From contig JANMLV010000224.1 of NCBI GenBank assembly GCA_031372705.1, positions 1-53,859 on the forward strand: a DNA stretch of 53,859 nucleotides, read 5' to 3'. How positions within the stretch are numbered: position 1 is the stretch's first letter; each line of letters begins with the position of its first letter. The notes under the pieces are model-generated. The model had not been told where the DNA came from, did not search any database, and saw only the letters and a list, made by a program, of their open reading frames with translations. This DNA is from Bacteroidota bacterium (GTDB taxonomy: Bacteria; Bacteroidota; Bacteroidia; Chitinophagales; BACL12). Positions 5,463 through 53,859 of the stretch are shown one piece after another. Made by a program: the position numbers and the translations under genes.

Positions 5463-5591
5463 ATTAATAATTTAGGATGTAAATGTATATAATAATTGCC
5501 AATTCTAAGGCATTACCCACAGCAGTGCAACAAGCAGCTTGCTTAATACCTAAGTGCAATTGCACCAATATTTCAAATACTCAAATAGTTA

Positions 5592-6218
5592 TTACTTGCT
5601 TAAGCGGGTAGATATCAAATTGATAAACTCGTTACGTGTTTGCATTTCCTGGAATTGTCCGGTAAATGCAGAAGTTGTGGTAACTGAATTTTGTTTTTGA
5701 ACGCCACGCATCATCATGCATAAATGGTTTGCTTCAATTACTACAGCAACGCCAATTGGTTCGAGGGTATCTTGCAGGCAATGTAAAACTTGCTGGGTTA
5801 GGCGTTCTTGCACTTGTAAGCGACGCGAAAAAATATCTACAACACGAGCGATTTTACTTAATCCAACAATTTTGCCATTTGGAATATAGGCAACATGCGC
5901 TCGTCCAAAAAACGGAAGCATATGGTGTTCGCACATGGAATAAATTTCTATGTCTTTTACAATTACCATCTCGCTGCATTCCTCGGTAAACATTGCTCCG
6001 CGAACAACGGCTTCTGCATCTTGACCATAACCTTGGGTTAAATATTGCATTGCCTTGGCTATACGTTCAGGTGTTTTTTGCAGGCCTTCACGTTCAGGGT
6101 CTTCACCTAATGTGGTGATTATTGATTTATAATTTGAAGCTAGAGCCTCGATAGATTCCATATCGTATTGTTCCACTTTTTTATAGAATTTACCTGATGT
6201 GTTATAAATTTCTTTCAT
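5592..6218 (-). CDS. folE: GTP cyclohydrolase I
   Basis: [46 protein letters not shown]. Confidence 0.98.
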
Positions 6219-12322: not shown

Positions 12323-13090
12323 ATGTTACAGGTTTTGAGATATACATTCGTTATTGCCGGGATTGCACTCTCGCTAGCAGCGTCATCACAAATTTTAATT
12401 GCTGAAGATTGGTCGCAATCTGATTGTGAAGGCACTGAACATAATTTATTTACCACACTGGATACCGGCTCAGTGGTTGTTATGGAAATTGTAATGCTCG
12501 ATGGCTGTATGCCTTGTATTAATACCGCTCACCTTATTGGACCTGTAATTGATAGTTATAATGCCCTTTATGAAAATCGGATTCAATATTATACTTTCGG
12601 TTATAACGATACTTATAATTGCGCAGCATTAAGTGAGTGGAAAACAATTAACGAAATTACTTGTAATGCGCAATTTGTAGAAGGAGCAGATATTGCGTCT
12701 TTTTATGGTGGGATGGGCATGCCAACAATTGTTGTAACCGGCCGCAATACCCACAATGTTTATTTTAATCAATTTGGATTTGTGCCTTCCGATACCGCTG
12801 AATTTGCACTTGCAATTGAATACGCACTCGGTTTATCTGAACCGGTTGCGATTGATAATCATATGCAAGCATCGCTTCCCGTTTTCCCAAACCCGGTGCA
12901 AAATGAAATTCAAATTAGCGGTTGGCCTGCCAACACGAACCTAACTGTTTATGATATTTTTGGAAAATGTGTAATCACCGCACAATTGCAAAACAACCGT
13001 ATTAATGTGTCAAGCTTGCCACAGGGATTATATACAATTAGCGTGCAAAACGACACCTATTCAGCAACTACTCGTTTTGTGAAATACTGA
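12323..13090 (+). CDS. T9SS-sorted protein with a thioredoxin-like CxxC domain
   Basis: Start reassigned to ATG 12323 (signal peptide MLQVLRYTFVIAGIALSLAASSQ); GCMPC, GMPT; C-terminal VFPNPVQ...LPQGLY...RFVK sorting domain. Confidence 0.8.
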   Translation: MLQVLRYTFVIAGIALSLAASSQILIAEDWSQSDCEGTEHNLFTTLDTGSVVVMEIVMLDGCMPCINTAHLIGPVIDSYNALYENRIQYYTFGYNDTYNCAALSEWKTINEITCNAQFVEGADIASFYGGMGMPTIVVTGRNTHNVYFNQFGFVPSDTAEFALAIEYALGLSEPVAIDNHMQASLPVFPNPVQNEIQISGWPANTNLTVYDIFGKCVITAQLQNNRINVSSLPQGLYTISVQNDTYSATTRFVKY

Positions 13091-18093: not shown

Positions 18094-19151
18094 TGCAAGA
18101 ATTTGAAGACGATATAGAAATAAATGATCTTGCGGGTGACACCGAAGAAGAACTGTATGAACATTATCGAGTGGTAACCGACAGGAAGCAAGAACCGTTG
18201 CGCATCGACAAATTTTTATTCAACAGGATAGAAAATATTTCACGCACCAGATTGCAAAATTGTGCTGCGGCTAATTGTATTTTAGTTAATGGTAAAGCAG
18301 TTAAATCTAACTATAAAATCAAGCCTTTTGATGAAATAGTGGTTGTGCTGCCACAGAAACCTGCAAAGTATGATGTTCGAGCTGAAAATATTCCAATTGA
18401 TATTGTATATGAAGATGATGATGTAGTTTTAATTAATAAAAAACCGGGCATGGTTGTACATCCCGGCCTCGGCAATTTTTCAGGCACCTTGGTAAATGCA
18501 TTGTTGTACCATTTTGAACAATTGCCGCCAAAGCAAGATGAACCCTATCGCCCCGGCCTTGTGCACCGTATTGATAAATTCACATCAGGTTTGATAATTG
18601 CTGCCAAAAATGAATTCGCAATGGCTCATCTCGCAAAACAATTTTACGACCATAGCATAAGTCGCAGGTATTATGCGTTAGTATGGGGCGAATTTGAAGA
18701 AGACAGTGGAACAATTACCGGAAATATTGCGCGCCATCAACGTTTTAGAAAAATATTTACTGTTTATCCCGAAGGCGGTGAAATTGGTAAACATGCCGTA
18801 ACACATTATAAGGTGTTGGAACGTTTTGGGTATACCAGCTTAGTAGAATGTAAATTAGAAACAGGCCGAACACATCAAATTAGAGTGCATATGCAAAGTA
18901 TCGGGCATCCAGTTTTTAGTGATAATACCTATGGCGGTGATAAAATTGTTAAAGGCACTATTTATAACAAGTATCGTCAGTTTGTTGAAAATTGCTTTGA
19001 TTTAATTCCGCGTCAGGCTTTGCATGCTAAATCTCTAGGGTTTATTCATCCAAGTTCCGGCAAAGAAATGTATTTTGAAAGCGAATTACCGGCCGATTTT
19101 GCCGCTGCAACCGATAAATGGCGTGCTTATTCGTTAAATATCAAATATTAA
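18093..19151 (+). CDS. rluD: RluA-family 23S rRNA pseudouridine synthase (RluD-like, with S4 domain)
   Basis: RIDKFL S4 domain, NKKPGMVVHP, VHRIDKFTSG, LETGRTHQIRVH, RQALHA. Confidence 0.93.
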   Translation: MQEFEDDIEINDLAGDTEEELYEHYRVVTDRKQEPLRIDKFLFNRIENISRTRLQNCAAANCILVNGKAVKSNYKIKPFDEIVVVLPQKPAKYDVRAENIPIDIVYEDDDVVLINKKPGMVVHPGLGNFSGTLVNALLYHFEQLPPKQDEPYRPGLVHRIDKFTSGLIIAAKNEFAMAHLAKQFYDHSISRRYYALVWGEFEEDSGTITGNIARHQRFRKIFTVYPEGGEIGKHAVTHYKVLERFGYTSLVECKLETGRTHQIRVHMQSIGHPVFSDNTYGGDKIVKGTIYNKYRQFVENCFDLIPRQALHAKSLGFIHPSSGKEMYFESELPADFAAATDKWRAYSLNIKY

Positions 19152-36285: not shown

Positions 36286-38583
36286 ATGAAAAAATTATTA
36301 ATGGCATTTGCAATAATGTATTGCGTAAGTGGAAATTCAATTTTCGCACAACAAACGCAATTATCGCAAGTAGCTGAAAAAAAACACGGCGCTTATATTA
36401 AGCCCGGCAGCAAGCCCGATTGGATTGAGTTTAAAAAGGAAGTGCCGTTTAATGCTGAAAATATTTTTCGCGATGCACCGGATTTAATTGGGATGTCATC
36501 AAACGATGAGATGCGTTTATTTAAAACAAATATTGATGCAGCCGGTAATAAGCATTTTAAATTCGCGCAGTTTTTTAAAGGTGTGCGTATTGAGGGTTTA
36601 GAATATTATGCACATGAGCGCAATAGTGTATTGCATCTCATCAACGGAACTTTTGTGGCAGATATTAATTTGAATACAATACCGGCAATTTCCGGTGAAC
36701 AAGCTGTTCAAACTATGCTAGCTGCTTATCCCGCTGAAAAATATTTGTGGGAAGATGTTGATGCTGAAGCTGCATTTAAAATTAAACGCAAGAATGAACT
36801 TGCCACATTGTATCCAACACCGGAATTATTAATAGTAAAAATAAATCCCACAGGTCCTTTTTTGGCAAGTAATTATACCTTGGCATATCGTATGTATGTG
36901 TTTGCAAAAAAGCCGCATATTGCACAATACGTTTATGTAAATGCACAAACCGGAGCAATACTCAGAGATAAAAGTTTAGACCATAGTTGTAATACTACTA
37001 CAGTGGAAACAACGTTTAATGGTCCGCAATTAATGTATACCGATTATAGAGAAGAATCTTGTAATGATGGATCGGATGAATTTGCCTATTTCTCAATTAA
37101 CGATTGTAATACCGATTCGGAAATTAGAAGCAATATGGAAGATGCTGATGGCGACGATTATTTAATTTGCGATGAGGATAATGATTGGAGTTGGATTGGC
37201 CCAGGTGTCAGCGGCATGATGGCGATAACTTCACTGTGGACAATTTCTGAATCATTTAAATACTATGATATCGTTCACGGTCACGAAAGTTTTGATGGTA
37301 GCTCCGGATTAATCGATTTATTTAGCAATCATACTTATTATGATGACGATGATAATCCTTATTGCACAAATGCAAATTATACATCTATATTAGATAATAT
37401 TTATTTTGGCTCAGGAAACGATTGTATACCCGGAACTACCGATGATTATAATACACTCGATATTGCCGGTCACGAATTTATGCACGGAATTATTGAGTAT
37501 GCACATTTTGATGCATTAGATTATTCAGAAGAAAGTGGTGCACTCAACGAATCGTTTGCAGATATTTTTGGTGAAATGGTAGAATATTGGATAGAAGGTG
37601 GTGCTTCACCAAGTTGGCTGATGGCAGAAGATAGAGGCGCTATTCGCTCAATGAGCAGCCCCAACGATTTTAATGATCCGGATACTTACTATGGTGATTT
37701 TTGGGCACCACTGGACGGCGATGATAATGGCGGAGTACATATAAATTCCGGAATTCAAAATCACATGTTTTATTTATTAAGTGAGGGTGGTGAAGGTGTA
37801 AACGATTACGATGTAGAATATCATGTAGATGGCATCGGCTATGTAAAAGCGCGAACAATTGCTTGGAGTGCGATGATGAATTACTTAAACGCGGCCGACG
37901 GATATTTTACGGCTAGAAACGCCTGGATACAAGCAGCAATCGATTTATATGGAAGTTGTTCACAGGAAGTAATTTCTGTTGGTCAAGCTTTTCAAGCAGT
38001 TGGCGTAACTAAATTTACCGCTTATGATATTGCTTCTGTTTGCGGAACTTATTTTTTTACAGGTTTTGCTGATGCAACTTATGCTATCGAAAATAAAAGT
38101 GTTGTAGTTGGCGAATTTCTTTTGCCTTGTGCAACTACAATAAATTCACCTGCAGTTGTTACTTTCGAATCAGGATATTATATTAATTTAAGTCCGGGAT
38201 TTGAAGCTAAATCAGGTTCCACTTTTGTGGCTTGGATAGATGAATGTGAAATAAGTGAGTATGATCCTGGCGGTTTGCGTTATGTGGCTCCAATTGAAGA
38301 TGAAGTTGTAGAAAATGAAAATAGAACTCAAATGGAAGTATTTCCTGTGCCCACAGCAAACAACATCACATTAGCTATAACGTTAGCTAACAGCGCAATC
38401 GCAAATTTATATGTATCAGATATTGCAGGCCGATTTGTTGCCAACTGGATGATTAATCAACAAGTAAATGAAGGTACCCATCAATTTGAATTTGATGCAA
38501 GTAATTTACCTTCAGGTATTTATTATGCAACATTCAAAACAAATAATGAAATGCAAACTGCAAAATTTGTAGTCCAACATTAA
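36286..38583 (+). CDS. M4 (thermolysin-family) metalloprotease with T9SS domain
   Basis: FTP/PepSY propeptide, HEFMH, ESGALNESFAD, GGVHINSG, LSPGFEAKSGSTF module, VFPVPT...LPSGIY. Confidence 0.93.
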   Translation: MKKLLMAFAIMYCVSGNSIFAQQTQLSQVAEKKHGAYIKPGSKPDWIEFKKEVPFNAENIFRDAPDLIGMSSNDEMRLFKTNIDAAGNKHFKFAQFFKGVRIEGLEYYAHERNSVLHLINGTFVADINLNTIPAISGEQAVQTMLAAYPAEKYLWEDVDAEAAFKIKRKNELATLYPTPELLIVKINPTGPFLASNYTLAYRMYVFAKKPHIAQYVYVNAQTGAILRDKSLDHSCNTTTVETTFNGPQLMYTDYREESCNDGSDEFAYFSINDCNTDSEIRSNMEDADGDDYLICDEDNDWSWIGPGVSGMMAITSLWTISESFKYYDIVHGHESFDGSSGLIDLFSNHTYYDDDDNPYCTNANYTSILDNIYFGSGNDCIPGTTDDYNTLDIAGHEFMHGIIEYAHFDALDYSEESGALNESFADIFGEMVEYWIEGGASPSWLMAEDRGAIRSMSSPNDFNDPDTYYGDFWAPLDGDDNGGVHINSGIQNHMFYLLSEGGEGVNDYDVEYHVDGIGYVKARTIAWSAMMNYLNAADGYFTARNAWIQAAIDLYGSCSQEVISVGQAFQAVGVTKFTAYDIASVCGTYFFTGFADATYAIENKSVVVGEFLLPCATTINSPAVVTFESGYYINLSPGFEAKSGSTFVAWIDECEISEYDPGGLRYVAPIEDEVVENENRTQMEVFPVPTANNITLAITLANSAIANLYVSDIAGRFVANWMINQQVNEGTHQFEFDASNLPSGIYYATFKTNNEMQTAKFVVQH

Positions 38584-47515: not shown

Positions 47516-49453
47516 ATGAAACTAATCAAACACACATTACTTCTCACGGTTATTCTGAGTGCGTTTACCACTTTTAATGCAAACGCCCAGTTATATACCT
47601 TCACTAACGATGAGTTAGGATTACCCGGAACTGTTGCTACCGGTGTTACAGCTTCGAGCCTTACACCTGTTAATGGTCCTGTGTTTATTAACGCTTGCGG
47701 CAGTGGATATAGCACCGACACCTGGAGCTTATCTACCGGTGCTTTCAGTACTGCTTTTTCCGCAATCCAATTAACCTTGACACCAACTGCGGGTTATAGC
47801 ATGACCATCACTCAAATGCAGTTTGACTTAGGTCGTAACCCACAAGGTCCAAGCAGAATGCGCTATGCATATAGCACAGATGGTGGTGCATCTTGGATCA
47901 ATAATGGAACCGATTATTCAGTGCCAAGTGGCTCATGTGGCTCCGGAACTACATTTATTTGGAACATGACTGATTTTACTTCAACATCAGCAGTTATTTT
48001 CCGTATTTATGGTTGGAATGCAGGCAATGTTAATGGTCAAGAAAGAAATTACAATGGTATTGTTGCAGGTTCGGCTTGTGCATTAACTGCATGGTATGCT
48101 GATGCAGATGGCGACGGATTTGGTAACCCAGCTGTTAGTACATTAGCTTGCAACGCACCTACAGGTTACGTAGCCAATAATACTGATTGTAATGATGCTA
48201 ACGCTTCAATAAAACCGAGTGCGACAGAAATTTGCAACTGAATTGATGATAATTGCAATGGTTCAATAGATGAAGGACTTACATTTGTTACCTATTATGC
48301 TGATGCAGATGGTGACGGTTACGGAAATCCTGCAGTAAGTGTAACTAGCTGTTCAGGTCCTCCTGCCGGTTATGTTGCCAACAACACAGATTGTAATGAT
48401 GCTAATGCCTCAATAAACCCGGGTGCTGCTGAAATTTGCAACGGAATTGATGATAATTGCAATGGTTCAATAGATGAAGGACTTACATTTGTTACTTACT
48501 ATGCCGACGCTGATGGCGATGGTTTTGGTGATGCAGGTACAAGTGTTACATCTTGCGCACCTGTAGCAGGTTATGTTTTAAATAATACCGATTGTGATGA
48601 TACACAAAACACTGTTTATCCCGGAGCAACCGAAATTTGCGATGGTTTAGATAATGATTGTGATGGTAGTATTGACGAAAATTTAGTGGTAGCAACAATT
48701 GCTCCTGCCGATTCTGCAATTACTTGTAAAGGTTTTCCTGTAACATTCTCTACAGAGCCTTGCGCAGGTTGCACTTACCAATGGTTCAAAAATGACAATC
48801 CATTACCGGGCGCTACAAGTGATACTTACAGCACAACTAAACCTGCTTATTATTCAGTTCAAGTAAACATTCCGGGCGGTTGCTTCGATGTTTCTGATTA
48901 CTCTTTATTAATCAGCGGATTTAATCCGAATGCTAATATTTACTATCCGAATGGCTTAAACTTATGTGCACCTTCGCCGGGAACTAATATCTTGGTTAAA
49001 GTTGGTTACACAGCTACAAATACTTATCAGTGGTACCAAGATGGTTTACCATTTGTTGGTGGTGGAGCTACAAGCTGGAAAATTTATCCTACAACTGCAG
49101 GAACTTACACTTGCTCAATCACTTCGATAGATGGTTGTAACCGTGTTACAGAGCCTGCTGTAGTAATTAACTCTTGCCGTATAGCAAATGAAACTGAAGC
49201 AACGTTGGCAGTTTATCCTAACCCTGCATCAAACAATTTTACAATTGATATGACAGTTGAAGAAAACATTGAAACTGCTCAAATCCAATTAGTAAATATG
49301 ATGGGTCAAATTGTAGCTAATGTATCTGCAACAGTTAATGGCGGTATATTAAATAATACAATTAATACAACTGATTTATCTTCAGGTATGTATCTTGTAA
49401 AAGTAATTACTGAATCAAAAGAATACAGCACTCAATTAATATTGAATAAATAA
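47516..49453 (+). pseudogene. T9SS-sorted surface protein with three MopE-like metal-binding repeats, interrupted by one in-frame TGA (48239-48241)
   Basis: ORFs 47516-48241 and 48686-49453 share a frame. Manual translation of 48242-48685 shows no further stop and continues the YADADGDGFG...DCND...EICNGIDDNCNG repeats. Joined product is 645 aa: signal peptide, repeats, Ig-like domains, VYPNPAS sorting domain. Confidence 0.85.
48227..48495 (+). repeat. 65-bp direct repeat, 204-bp period (48227-48291 and 48431-48495)
   Basis: 64/65 identical; the only mismatch is T48239 vs G48443. Confidence 0.95.
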
Positions 49454-49466
49454 TTAAAGTGTAAAC

Positions 49467-49501
49467 AAAAAAAACCGCATCTTTTTGATGCGGTTTTTTT
49501 T
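49467..49501. terminator. Bidirectional terminator
   Basis: A8-CCGCATC-ttttt-GATGCGG-T8 between convergent genes. Confidence 0.9.
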
Positions 49502-49519
49502 ATGCTTAATTTTTAGCAA

Positions 49520-50098
49520 CTAAGGCTTAAAAAAATTCGCCATAAATATTTTAATGGCTAATGCTAAGGCAATTACGCCAAAAAATTTAGTAATGGCATG
49601 CAGCGCTGTTTTACCGATTTTTCGCTCTATCCAATCGGTTGAACGCAATACAATAAATATGATAACTGCGTTAACTAATACTGCTATTAAAATGTTATAA
49701 ATAGAGTAAACGCTGCGCATACTAATCAGCACAGTTAGTGTTCCGGCACCCACCAATAAAGGAAATCCAATTGGCACTAAACTACCTGCCGCAGAACCTT
49801 CCGGGGTAGATTTAAAAATGTGAATACCCAATATCATTTCCAAACCCAATAAGAAAATTACAACCGAACCTGCAAGCGCAAAAGATTGCGTATCTAATCC
49901 CAATAAACTCAAAATGGTATCTCCCAAAAATAAAAAAGTAACCATGAGAATACCGGCAAAAATGGTCGTTTTTGCAGGTTGTAATGTAATACCTCTATTC
50001 TTCATCGAAATAATTAAAGGCACATTTCCTAAAACATCGATAATTGCAAATAGTGTTAAACTAATGGTAATGATATCTGAAATTTTAATAGCAGACAT
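49520..50098 (-). CDS. marC: MarC family membrane protein
   Basis: LFAIIDVLGNVP, FALAG, VPIGFPLLVGAG, KFFGVIALALA; about six TM helices. Confidence 0.9.
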   Translation of the reverse strand: MSAIKISDIITISLTLFAIIDVLGNVPLIISMKNRGITLQPAKTTIFAGILMVTFLFLGDTILSLLGLDTQSFALAGSVVIFLLGLEMILGIHIFKSTPEGSAAGSLVPIGFPLLVGAGTLTVLISMRSVYSIYNILIAVLVNAVIIFIVLRSTDWIERKIGKTALHAITKFFGVIALALAIKIFMANFFKP

Positions 50099-50680
50099 AA
50101 AATAAAATTAAATGGTAATTAAAATAGGTAATTGTAAATAAGGAATACAAGAAGACTAACAGCACGCAACTGCGCAAATATACCAAGGATACTCATGTAT
50201 TCCAATGGCATTATTGTAGATGTTTAATGTAAATTTCATAGTAGGCACAACAAATAAATGTAAATACCGGCAAAAAAGTTCCCCCCTATAGCGAAATATT
50301 TTTTGCCACCGCAAAAACTATTTCTGCTATAGGGCATTTCTTCAACCTTTTTACCTGTATTTTGTAAGCAGGACTTTCTATTAGCGATTTTGTGTTTATC
50401 GAATATGTTAATTGTATAAATGTGCGCAGTTGAGTATATTTGGTATTGAGTTAACTGCGCCAATCTTGCCAAATTGGGGTGATTGGGGAAGTAAAGGTGC
50501 GCATATAAACAAGTTATAACCAATGGTTCATAAAAATTCCAGTCATATTGCAACTTCGGACAGATACTCTCAGTGGACTGTTGACCGACTGAACAAACGC
50601 AGACGAAGGCAAGTCGGCCGACTGCTTTTTTACAAACTTTTGACTACTCACACGACAATATTTATTAATTTAACAGACAA

Positions 50681-52867
50681 ATGAAAAAAATGAAAAATCG
50701 ATTTAACCTTTTTGCACTAGTTCTTATACTTGGTACTTTTGCATCAACAACTTTTGCTCAAATTGAAATAACAGATTTTAAAGATGATAGTAGCGATGCG
50801 TATTATTTGAATATTGAATTATCAATTGGAGAAGAAACTTTCTTTGAATCATACAAATCTGAACTTGGATTAACTGAGAATGATGAAATGCAAGTTAAAA
50901 CATCTGAAATAGATGAATTAGGGTTTACTCATACTCGTTACAAACAATACTTTAAAGGTATTGAAGTGGAGGGAGGAACGTATATTTTGCATTCAAAAGA
51001 GAGTTATGTAATAATTGCAAATGGTGAACTTATTGAAGGACTAAACTTAAATATTGTACCCTCTATTTCTGAATCAGAAGCATTGGAATCAGCTTTAAAA
51101 GAAATTGCAGCAGTTGAATATGCGTGGCAATCTAAAGAATGGGAAGACGGATTAAAGCTTGAAACAGAAAATGAAATAGCTACCTATTACCCCATTGGCA
51201 CACTTGTATTTACGAAAGATTTTTTAACCTCACCCAAATTCGAGAATTATCTCTTAGCCTATAGATTTGAGATAGTGTGCTCAAATCCCGATGAAAATTT
51301 TATGATTTATATTGATGCTGAAAAAGGAAGCTTCATTAAAAAATATCCCTTGACCAAAGATTGCACAAATCATGTCGGCTCCGCAACAATGATGTATTAT
51401 GGTTATCATACTTTTAATGTAAACAAACGAGGATGGCCATATAACGACTATACACTTGAGGATTGCACAAGAGGAAGTGGAATTAAAACAAAATGGGCGC
51501 ATTTTCTTCCAGACAATGTTACAGATGATAATGGCAATTGGGGAACTGATGATCAAAAGGGAACTACAATACATTGGATAGCGCAAAGAGCATGGGATTA
51601 CTACCAAGCTACACACAGTCGTAATGGAATGGATAATTCAGGACATCAACTTGATATGCGAGCCGATTGGAATCAAGCAAATGCGGTATACAGTCATATC
51701 TTAGGTAATGATAAAATTAAGATTGGAACATTTACAAATTATTTAGGAACCTTAGATGTTGTAGGTCATGAATTTACGCATGGTATCACTCAATATACTG
51801 CAAATTTAGAATATGAAAATGAATCGGGGGCATTAAATGAATCATTCTCTGATATATTCGGGACTGCAATAGAAAGGTATTCACTAGGCTCTAACGACTG
51901 GGATTTAGGCGCTCCCGCAATTACATTAAGAAACATGGAAAACCCTAATGCATTTAGTCAACCTGATTTTTACGAGGGGGCATTCTGGTATACTGGCCCT
52001 GATGATACTGGCGGAGTGCATACAAATAGTGGTGTTCAAAATTATTGGTTCTATTTGTTAAGTTCTGGGGCGACGGCAAACGTCACTGGGATAGGTTTTG
52101 ATAAAGCTGCTAAAATCGCCTATAGAACACTCACGATTTACCTTGATGAAACTTCTGACTATAATGATGCAAGAACTTGGTCATTACAATCAGCTGCAGA
52201 TTTATATGGATCATGCTCCAACGAATGGTTAATGACAAATAATGCATGGTCAGAAGTGGGTCTTGGCGCAACATTACCCTTTATTTTCTGCGCCACTATT
52301 TCAGGACCTTCTTTGATATGCGAGGAGGAGCTAAATGATATTGACTACATATTTAACGCATCTGGAACTTATAATGGTTTGACCAACCCAACAGGAATGA
52401 CTTTTAGTTGGGTAATAACTCCAAGCAGTCCTGCATGGACATTTAATTTAAGTGGTACTGGTAATAAAAAAATGACCGTTACAAATGTAAACGGAACAAC
52501 TGACAGGACTTTAACTGTCACTGCATCATTTGCCGGTCAAACTCAAACCGATGCCCACAATGTTTTAATAGAACCTTGTGATGATTGCCCTCCCCTTTGT
52601 AAAATCGGGTTTTTTGATAAGACCGATGAATTAAGCATCAATATATTTCCAAATCCAACAGACGGGATAGTAAATTATTACATAACAAATTCCACTGGCG
52701 AAGTACTACTACAAGTCTTCGACATTAAGGGTAAATTGCTATTTAATAAAAATATTAGCAAATCTGACGGGACATTAAATATTTCAGAATTCCCATCAGG
52801 AATATATTTATTTAAGTTAGCAGACAATTCTAATTCTACATCCCATTTAATTCAAGTAAATAAGTAA
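50681..52867 (+). CDS. M4 (thermolysin-family) metalloprotease with T9SS domain
   Basis: Signal peptide, FTP propeptide (THTRYKQYFKGIEVEG), HEFTH, ESGALNESFSD, GGVHTNSG, IFPNPT...FPSGIY. Confidence 0.93.
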   Translation: MKKMKNRFNLFALVLILGTFASTTFAQIEITDFKDDSSDAYYLNIELSIGEETFFESYKSELGLTENDEMQVKTSEIDELGFTHTRYKQYFKGIEVEGGTYILHSKESYVIIANGELIEGLNLNIVPSISESEALESALKEIAAVEYAWQSKEWEDGLKLETENEIATYYPIGTLVFTKDFLTSPKFENYLLAYRFEIVCSNPDENFMIYIDAEKGSFIKKYPLTKDCTNHVGSATMMYYGYHTFNVNKRGWPYNDYTLEDCTRGSGIKTKWAHFLPDNVTDDNGNWGTDDQKGTTIHWIAQRAWDYYQATHSRNGMDNSGHQLDMRADWNQANAVYSHILGNDKIKIGTFTNYLGTLDVVGHEFTHGITQYTANLEYENESGALNESFSDIFGTAIERYSLGSNDWDLGAPAITLRNMENPNAFSQPDFYEGAFWYTGPDDTGGVHTNSGVQNYWFYLLSSGATANVTGIGFDKAAKIAYRTLTIYLDETSDYNDARTWSLQSAADLYGSCSNEWLMTNNAWSEVGLGATLPFIFCATISGPSLICEEELNDIDYIFNASGTYNGLTNPTGMTFSWVITPSSPAWTFNLSGTGNKKMTVTNVNGTTDRTLTVTASFAGQTQTDAHNVLIEPCDDCPPLCKIGFFDKTDELSINIFPNPTDGIVNYYITNSTGEVLLQVFDIKGKLLFNKNISKSDGTLNISEFPSGIYLFKLADNSNSTSHLIQVNK

Positions 52868-52877
52868 TTTTTTACAC

Positions 52878-52916
52878 AAACCACTACGATACATTTTAAA
52901 TGTATCGTAGTGGTTT
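52878..52916 (+). terminator. Near-perfect palindrome (19-bp arms, 1-nt centre) between the two cassette genes
   Basis: AAACCACTACGATACATTT-T-AAATGTATCGTAGTGGTTT. Confidence 0.75.
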
Positions 52917-52930
52917 TAATTCTATTTAAC

Positions 52931-53545
52931 ATGAAAAATATAATATTCACAACAACATTTATAATTTATATATCAACATTGATTGCACAAACAAGCAATT
53001 CCTTTTCAGTTAAAATTGGGGAAATAGCATTTACAGATTGGGGTAATAGGTATGGAATACAGCCTACATTATCTTATTCGCATTTGTATTCAAATCAATT
53101 GAAATTATCAACAGATTTAAATGGCTATTACTTTGAGCGATTGAATGAGTTTCACAGTTTGCCTCCTGTGGGCTTTGTTGAAAGCAAAATAGTAATTGAA
53201 AGTAATATTAAGTTGTGCCGTCAATTTAGCTCAGTTGATAACTTAAAAACAGCTGCTGGAGCAGGCTTGTCATTAAGACTTCGTAGCGACAACATCATTG
53301 TTTCTTCAGGAGTAACTGGCGGAGGCTTTCCTGAAACAATTTTAATTGGTTATGGAGGTATAGAGGTTGGTGTAGTCTTGTACTTTGAAAGCAATTATTT
53401 ATTGACTGACAAATTTTCGTTTGGAATTTATACCCAAGCTAATTTATATTATCCAACAAATGACGGTACATCCTCATATTGGGTGCACAAAAGTCCAAGT
53501 GCATTTAGTTTTGGTCTATCAACAAATTTTTATTTTAGAAAATAG
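52931..53545 (+). CDS. Hypothetical outer-membrane beta-barrel protein
   Basis: Start MKNIIF with signal peptide; amphipathic strands; C-terminal FGLSTNFYF. Confidence 0.65.
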   Translation: MKNIIFTTTFIIYISTLIAQTSNSFSVKIGEIAFTDWGNRYGIQPTLSYSHLYSNQLKLSTDLNGYYFERLNEFHSLPPVGFVESKIVIESNIKLCRQFSSVDNLKTAAGAGLSLRLRSDNIIVSSGVTGGGFPETILIGYGGIEVGVVLYFESNYLLTDKFSFGIYTQANLYYPTNDGTSSYWVHKSPSAFSFGLSTNFYFRK

Positions 53546-53579
53546 CAATTGGAATGATAAATTTCTACCTTAAACCACA

Positions 53580-53731
53580 GGTTATAACATAGGCTTTGGC
53601 AAAATTTGTTTTTGTGGGGGCGGACGAGTAAATCAAACCTTCATCCATCTATCAACCCTTTAATAAAATAAATACCTTAATCGCTTCTATCCCCACAAAA
53701 ACAAACTTCGCCAAGCCCCAAAACGTCAGGC
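53580..53731 (+). other. attC-like recombination site (about 150 bp imperfect hairpin)
   Basis: TAAC box, left arm GGCTTTGGCAAAATTTGTTTTTGTGGGG (53592-53619), right arm CCCCACAAAAACAAACTTCGCCAAGCC (53691-53717), then GTCAGGC at the R' position. Confidence 0.6.
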
Positions 53732-53859
53732 TGTGAATAAACTCCACGTTTAATCTATTTCTTAAAATTATTGCGTGTAAAATTGATTTACACTTGTAAT
53801 AATTCAATTTAACACCTGCATTTTTAATGATGTAATTTCTTTTCGCATAATTATCATGT

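Follow-up and report, generated by a model that had tools for sequence, protein, structure and literature searches.

The 53,859-nucleotide contig JANMLV010000224.1 of a Bacteroidota bacterium (assembly GCA_031372705.1, order Chitinophagales), the whole of which is called the window here, carries a gene cassette close to the chromosomal gene marC. The cassette holds the gene of a secreted zinc protease and a second open reading frame (ORF2), and it closes with a hairpin that resembles the attC sites of integrons. It is very probably mobile, the first cassette of an array inserted beside marC by an integron-like system with a non-classical enzyme. The features are listed in Table 1, where C, G and L numbers denote contigs, genomes and loci, respectively, as in the text.

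Table 1. Features of the cassette locus in the window and of the candidate recombinase gene on another contig of the same genome.
Feature	Position	Strand	Description
Cassette	50514..53725	+	3212 bp, TTATAA... to ...CAAAACG; its start GTTATAA is complementary to R'' TTATAAC at all 7 positions
M4 (thermolysin-type) zinc protease	50681..52867	+	728 aa; signal peptide, FTP/PepSY propeptide, C-terminal sorting domain of the type IX secretion system (T9SS)
Inter-gene hairpin	52878..52916		Perfect 19 bp, then T-run; terminator-like; retained in the G014 copy
ORF2	52931..53545	+	About 204 aa; signal-peptide-like N-terminus; ATG start as in homologues
attC-like site	53582..53731	+	150 nt; R'' TTATAAC 53582-53588; spacer AAAAC; crossover G 53725
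Left element (LE), putatively attI-like	50340..50512	+	Repeated, conserved; ends ...AAACAAG; promoter-like TATATTTG box
'A' element, first 134 bp	53726..53859	+	Multi-copy; joined to the hairpin exactly after AAAACG; contig ends
marC	49520..50098	-	Pfam MarC, E 3e-26; conserved chromosomal flank
Intergenic stretch	50099..50283		Collinear with congeners up to about 50283, where homology stops within a terminator-like hairpin
Xer/IntI-like tyrosine recombinase	C200:21712-22839		375 aa; single in genome; best match to the integrase model

The cassette starts directly 3' of the G|TT that closes the left element (LE). An earlier note on this DNA had pointed to two 16-mers, GTTATAACCAATGGTT (50513-50528) and AACCACAGGTTATAAC (53573-53588), as complementary at 14 of 16 positions and to a long hairpin after the second one, and both observations were confirmed at these positions. 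With up to two mismatches, the 16-mer occurred at only two places in the 53.9-kb window (0.12 expected), a number reached in none of 100 shuffles. The 14/16 match alone is weak evidence, because the core of the 16-mer, GGTTATAACC, is a palindrome by itself and 147 inverted pairs were listed within 3.6 kb; it rises above chance because of the hairpin family described below. The final stop codon of the cassette ends at 53545, and the arms of the hairpin (53596-53619 and 53691-53714) are 24 nt each, 92% complementary and separated by 71 nt. As single-stranded DNA, the bottom strand folded at -25 kcal/mol in comparison with -13.0 ± 2.9 for shuffled sequences (z -4.2), and none of 200 shuffles equalled it. 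An Rfam scan of 48000-53859 gave no family at threshold, with weak leader- or miRNA-like matches on hairpins only.

The closing 134 bp of the window are also found at the ends of four other contigs, each copy 3' of a different hairpin. All these hairpins share one layout, in which three variable bases and TAAC are followed by one base, by a long stem with its loop and return strand, and finally by AAAAC and G. A covariance model (R1) was trained on 17 sites picked by our own TAAC...GTTA scanner. The earlier note had suggested looking for related hairpins with such a model, and R1 gave 37 matches in this genome, corresponding to 34 distinct sites on 21 contigs, 17 of them outside the training set, with 150 of 4413 first-look candidates scored. 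The window's attC-like site scored 64.2 bits (E 9e-11) and was the only R1 site in the window before the contig ends. Its R' box is now a hybrid, GTCAGGC, shared with the element inserted on the right. TAAC and GTTA were nearly invariant across the family. All 16 stem pairs of the RNAalifold structure had compensatory changes, and 94.7% of the stem cells paired, versus 69.2% after shuffling and 30-43% with partners slid, figures that are inflated because the 17 training hairpins came from a scanner that demands a stem. As in attC sites, AAC and GTT boxes surround an imperfect hairpin that is better conserved in structure than in sequence. The spacers are asymmetric (1 nt versus 5 nt), and 1x1 mismatches are conserved at alignment columns 12/137, 19/130 and 22/126. 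Of 121 genomes sampled across the order, 87 had R1 matches.

Two side observations concern the hairpins. Short direct repeats of the AGTTTTGTGGT or ACTTTTGTGCT type occur two or three times in many attC-like loops (for example L007:6709-6840, L006:7636-7767 and L008:1887-2017) and could be binding sites of an accessory protein; the loop of the window's own hairpin has no repeats of these types. The scanner also caught a separate family of 78-nt near-perfect palindromes (CAATAACCACTGCTCGGACATG...), unrelated to the attC model, at C125:5820-5896, C192:18077-18154 and C276:12284-12361, 12488-12565 and 18641-18718.

The crossover point was then read from neighbouring sites. Every site was matched to its nearest downstream neighbour in the same contig and orientation, which gave 21 pairs. 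In 13 of these, all three variable bases after GTTA complemented those before the TAAC of the next hairpin, while 10,000 trials of shuffled pairing averaged 1.46 such pairs and never exceeded 9. The window pair, GTTATAA and TTATAAC, agreed at all seven positions, and three of five LE-to-attC pairs also obeyed the rule. The distance from R'' to the complementary upstream point ranged from 0.4 to 5.4 kb. If DNA is cut and joined at G|TT, the six opening bases of a cassette should complement the R'' of its own hairpin, and the three-base complementarity is the footprint of crossover at this point. The geometry put forward earlier, a 3212-bp cassette whose own 5' end pairs with R'' and which crosses over at G|TT, thus holds for the window and for most pairs in the genome.

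The surroundings of marC were compared with those in congeneric genomes. In G010, G011 and G015, marC occupies the same position with 88-90% amino acid identity, and G010 and G011 also share the window's gene order upstream of it. At the DNA level, similarity to these two genomes stopped at about 50283 (the sequences were compared by eye). About 210 bp after marC, these two genomes carry genes whose homologues lie on C6:10720-18058 in the genome studied here. Because G010 and G011 have marC beside genes that here are on C6, the array represents an insertion between marC and its neighbours, as the earlier note had supposed. C6 itself carries one LE and two cassettes that obey the rule, the last hairpin ending at about 10639. 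The protease and ORF2 were absent from the marC locus of all three congeners (for G015, in the stretch examined at marC itself).

Part of the cassette was found in the array of another species. Contig C173 of G014 carries the stretch 52519-53719 at 92% DNA identity, that is, the sorting domain, the inter-gene hairpin, ORF2 and the attC-like site, while the marC region of G014 is only 68-69% identical to that of the window. The G014 copy is a 1.5-kb cassette between two R1 hairpins, followed by another cassette, and its context differs from that in the window. The two cassettes agree at 13 of their first 14 bases. The 5' cargo of the G014 copy is a chimeric 235-aa ORF instead of the M4 domains: at L132 (G014:C173) 5474-6181 an unrelated N-terminus without a signal peptide runs in frame into the T9SS sorting domain of the protease. 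Judging from the sequence, this ORF would be either a swap of the passenger domain or a deletion remnant inside the cassette.

The identification of the first gene as an M4 protease with a T9SS tail was borne out by Pfam (Peptidase_M4_C, 8e-48; Peptidase_M4, 3.5e-18; FTP; Por_Secre_tail, 5.7e-12), and the protein appears intact, with HEFTH at residue 363 and NESFSD at 386. Its closest relative among 120 genomes of the order was 41% identical. Matches in congeners (about 780 aa) were 36-39% identical and are paralogues, and two further M4 paralogues, at 36439-38013 of the window and at C227:19325-21424 of the same genome (G000), were 36-37% identical; all of these look like vertically inherited members of the family. 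The longest frame of ORF2 begins at GTG 52910, but its homologues begin at ATG. ORF2, which the earlier note had taken for a beta-barrel, had no match in Pfam or NCBIfam, even at E 5, and only three homologues, with 90, 59 and 64% identity.

The earlier note had also envisaged a system that shuffles secreted cargo, and the other cassettes did not bear this out. Of 20 further cassette ORFs scanned with Pfam, three had a Por_Secre_tail. The cargo was diverse and included GmrSD, AAA_15 and PLD-type genes, oxidoreductases and transposases of the IS30 and IS110 types, and a single 5.4-kb cassette encoded a histidine kinase together with a TonB-receptor-like protein. At the Pfam thresholds used, which involved no dedicated immunity profiles, no immunity family was found among these 20 ORFs and the window's two. 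ORFs in arrays were strongly co-oriented, for example 26 versus 1 on C276. At C312:217-3155 (L021), an R1 hairpin is followed by an IS30-like transposase gene (HTH_38 and rve) and one of the IS110 family, and insertion sequences therefore lie inside arrays. Codon usage, which the earlier note had proposed comparing with the flanks, did not set the cassette apart, and neither did GC content.

The sequences on both sides of the cassette turned out to be repeated. The left boundary at G|TT was confirmed, and the left partner is itself a repeated element: the genome contains nine copies of LE, which resemble each other up to G|TTA and no further. LE showed no conserved hairpin (five weak pairs). 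Its TATATTTG box fits the Bacteroidetes -7 promoter consensus, and we infer that LE is an attI-like site with a putative promoter. LE was also considered as a second type of attC and rejected, as it has no conserved hairpin and its inner TAAC falls off the cassette rule (by eye). LE was present in 1 of 16 congeners.

On the right, the proposed empty site AACAAG|TCAGGC had to be abandoned, because TCAGGC is the start of a multi-copy element ('A') rather than chromosome. This element is joined at the crossover of at least five hairpins and was found only at five contig ends (the window, C144, C51, C217 and C21). Its depth was 118 and 84 in the contigs of runs X1 and X2, versus about 7 and 5.6 over the cassette, and it was absent from all 16 congeners. 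An IS1182-type insertion sequence was considered for the right flank and was not supported, as neither the 46-aa N-terminus nor the 94-117-aa ORFs of internal copies matched Pfam. A second multi-copy sequence ('B') always ends in ...CTGACG, and at eight contig ends (C144, C51, C6, C107, C120, C121, C163 and C242) it precedes cassette starts of the form TTAxxx. The first 19 bases of 'A' are an inverted copy of the 'B' end at 16 positions. 'A' and 'B' may be opposite ends of a single inserted element, or 'B' may be another attI-like module. A small minus-strand ORF (MDFITPQNRHQ...), which had no Pfam match, also begins within 'B'.

A recombinase encoded elsewhere had been predicted, and none was found beside the cassette. 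In a six-frame search of the genome (completeness 97.4%), no match exceeded the 265-bit cut-off of the integron integrase model TIGR02249, and a canonical IntI over this cut-off was present in only one of the 121 genomes of the order, which had no R1 match. The best candidate was a gene on C200, whose product scored 213 bits against TIGR02249, 206.6 bits against XerA_Arch (cut-off 220) and 190 bits against XerD (cut-off 329.6). Against solved structures, for which there is no cut-off, it scored 134 bits with XerA (PDB 5hxy), 132 bits with PDB 4a8e and 126 bits, in two pieces, with IntI4 (PDB 2a3v). In an alignment with the canonical IntI of G047, about 45 residues of insertions were missing from the C200 protein and from four relatives. 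On C200, 128 bp separate the gene from G|TTATAT, and this start fits R'' ATATAAC in the first hairpin. The array continues into C217 with two more cassettes, giving seven co-oriented ORFs and three hairpins in all.

Relatives of the C200 protein form a family of at least 7099 proteins at E<=1e-40, named XerD, site-specific integrase or 'tyrosine recombinase/integron integrase'. Among 16 Bacteroidota-labelled loci taken with 10-kb flanks, R1 matches occurred in seven, and all 16 matches lay downstream on the recombinase strand, with none upstream. A divergent layout of recombinase and hairpin was seen in some genomes. With presence of the recombinase across the order set at E<=1e-45, hairpins were found in 63 of 70 genomes having the gene versus 24 of 51 without it (odds ratio about 10, although kin are not independent). 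Proteobacterial relatives with 30-34% identity were examined as possible integron integrases and discarded, since they score as PRK01287 XerC-type proteins. Just 5' of the C200 gene (C200:20400-21700; L022/L133), about nine copies of a repeat of about 134 bp form one block per orientation, one after the other, which looks like a putative regulatory or binding array before the recombinase gene. At C162:5443-5535 (L165 1444-1536), a 32-aa fragment with a stop codon matches the C-terminus of TIGR02249 (E 6e-5); its neighbours are a dihydroorotate dehydrogenase gene on one side and, on the other, a 'B' element at the head of a small cassette array, and it may be a remnant of a second recombinase gene.

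These data suggest how the cassette could have reached its place. It would have been captured as a circle, its attC-like site folding on one strand and recombining at G|TT with the double-stranded LE that ends at 50512, and the LE promoter would read into the protease gene. The recombinase encoded on C200, which itself heads an array of the same hairpins, would act in trans; we regard it as moderately likely that the acting enzyme is of this C200 type.

Several observations weigh against this view of a cassette inserted by an integron-like system. Besides the inflated covariation figures, 8 of the 21 site pairs break the complementarity rule, the failures being long gaps, in which sites were perhaps missed, or visibly degenerate sites. 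Neither the joint 50512|53726 nor the circle junction ...CAAAACG|TTATAACC was seen in the contigs of runs X1-X4, nor was an empty LE site; the excision search covered assembled contigs only, regions without cover in X4 are uninformative, and two joints of low depth, whose sides measured 23 and 24 letters, were set aside. The window's end is linked to C6 by inference from synteny, since the assembly, in 318 contigs, breaks at repeats. The GC content of the cassette is not foreign (0.348 versus 0.370 ± 0.018; genome value 0.365). The window's LE has no adjoining recombinase and is unlike the 128-bp region 3' of the C200 gene (by eye), and the C200 protein lacks the additional domain of IntI that a passage in one paper calls necessary for integron recombination. 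Hairpins occur in the 24 genomes without the recombinase counted above and are missing from 7 of the 70 that have it, and with 1.5-kb flanks only 5 of 29 recombinase loci showed a hairpin, one of them divergent.

Other explanations were weighed against the same data. The hairpins could be palindromes of the repetitive extragenic (REP) or miniature inverted-repeat (MITE) type, or terminators, next to vertically inherited genes, with a boundary match that arose by chance. Hairpins are indeed common and placed after stop codons, a 14/16 match is ordinary among the inverted pairs listed, and the GC content is native. However, REP or terminator biology offers no basis for complementarity between R'' and an upstream point in 13 of 21 pairs, where about 1.5 are expected, and each R'' is tied to the start of its own block, which is not a property of REP or MITE families. 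The co-orientation of ORFs on C276, the absence of the array from congeners, the 92%-identical tail in the array of another species and the lack of a protease orthologue above 41% identity also speak against it, so that this explanation is largely refuted and extremely improbable. A classical integron or a cluster of attC sites lacking an integron integrase (CALIN), with cassettes moved by a canonical IntI whose gene was left unassembled or unbinned, would agree with the breaks of this assembly at every repeat, with R boxes TAAC/GTTA as in classical attC sites and with the C162 fragment. It is nevertheless very unlikely in view of the completeness of the genome and the six-frame search, of the single canonical IntI in an order where 87 of 121 genomes have hairpins, and of the strict polarity of hairpins after a Xer-like recombinase in seven loci.

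It is also conceivable, though unlikely, that the cassettes are real but are moved by a housekeeping XerC/D-like pair (C90 and C302) or by another protein, the C200-type enzyme serving its own array or another role. The 24 genomes that have hairpins without a C200-type gene would be accounted for in this way, and so would the difference between LE and the site adjoining the C200 gene; the recombinase itself scores about equally on XerA, XerD and IntI models. The polar linkage in the seven named and several unnamed loci, the co-occurrence across the order and the complementarity rule, which is obeyed at the C200 junction, argue instead for the C200-type recombinase as the enzyme of the integron-like system.

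The system was compared with described ones. It shares with classical integrons promoterless co-oriented cassettes, each closing with an imperfect AAC...GTT hairpin whose structure is kept more than its sequence, the G|TT crossover with a cassette start that complements its own R'', putatively an attI-like site with a promoter at the head of the array, and varied cargo including defence genes (GmrSD and AAA_15). It differs from them in having no IntI, the linked recombinase being without the additional domain of about 45 aa, and in a recombinase gene that mostly runs in the same direction as the cassettes. R box and stem are 1 nt apart on one side of the hairpin but 5 nt (AAAAC) apart on the opposite side, the stems have 1x1 mismatches and no clear bulged bases, and the sites are about 130 nt long with loops that often hold short direct repeats. 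Many attI-like elements stand without a recombinase (the nine LE copies), and cassettes reach 3-5 kb with several genes. The marC locus resembles CALINs in having attC-type sites without a nearby integrase gene, but CALINs are called with the classical attC model. The available text on IntegronFinder 2.0 reports only In0 elements and one complete integron (Salinibacter) from Bacteroidetes, and because it reports nearly nothing there, the sites described here may escape the classical model. Two other papers merely list Bacteroidota among the integron-bearing phyla. The recombinase is Xer-like, its nearest solved relatives being XerA, as in Xer/dif systems and integrative mobile elements exploiting Xer (IMEX). 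Xer systems act on short double-stranded dif sites and are not known to form arrays of hairpin-ended cassettes.

Among described systems, the one found here is closest, and probably related, to the rAID-1 arrays of gut Bacteroidales. According to the text available to us, these have a 5' XerD-family tyrosine recombinase and co-directional genes, occur in 226 of 423 genomes and contain intergenic repeats termed 'reminiscent of integrons'; they are defined by orphan immunity genes and a recombinase at least 44% identical to BF9343_RS08045 (Ross et al., 2019, bioRxiv 10.1101/471110). That text gives no hairpin structure, crossover point or cassette rule, and the biogenesis of rAID was still called open in a 2025 preprint. 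The C200-C217 array likewise is headed at its 5' end by a XerD-like recombinase, with at least two co-directional genes and intergenic repeats, and R1 hairpins were found 3' of relatives of the C200 recombinase in two loci (L049 and L056) of metagenome-assembled genomes (MAGs) of Bacteroidales. The Bacteroidales-labelled relatives were 36-46% identical to the C200 protein. Unlike rAID-1, the system occurs in another order and an environmental host, its cargo consists of a secreted protease and varied genes, and neither orphan immunity genes, among the ORFs scanned at the Pfam thresholds used, nor the low GC content of rAID-1 was found. The earlier note had supposed a distinct cassette system; a closely analogous one was already in print for Bacteroidales. 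A literature search, to which subscription journals and supplements were out of reach, yielded no paper on these hairpins or on the crossover rule in Bacteroidota.

Integrons are regarded as in essence a proteobacterial feature. The data showed a cassette system with integron logic in most genomes sampled from one Bacteroidota order, tied to a recombinase family of thousands, and the thermolysin-like secreted protease appears in it as accessory, exchangeable cargo. Tentatively, and with some doubt, we propose that Bacteroidota carry a phylum-wide analogue of integrons without IntI, in which a XerA/IntI-like recombinase with an N-terminal extension and without the additional domain acts on folded, asymmetrically spaced hairpins at G|TT, promoter-bearing attI-like modules (LE, and perhaps 'B') spread over the arrays and over further chromosomal loci allow capture and expression far from the recombinase, and rAID-1 is one branch. 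If this is true, the known reach of cassette-based gene capture becomes wider, the additional domain of IntI is not the sole route to hairpin recombination, and much of the fragmentation of assemblies in these MAGs is explained. Defined sites and a crossover point would also become available for the study of how rAID-type arrays grow in gut Bacteroidales, and with rAID-1 as a branch there would be a concrete and testable mechanism for its biogenesis.

Finally, on the far side of marC, the stretch 49428-49564 gave sub-threshold Rfam matches (Thr_leader and others) on both strands. It forms a strong bidirectional terminator-like hairpin, which sits between a T9SS-tailed gene (48686-49453) and marC.

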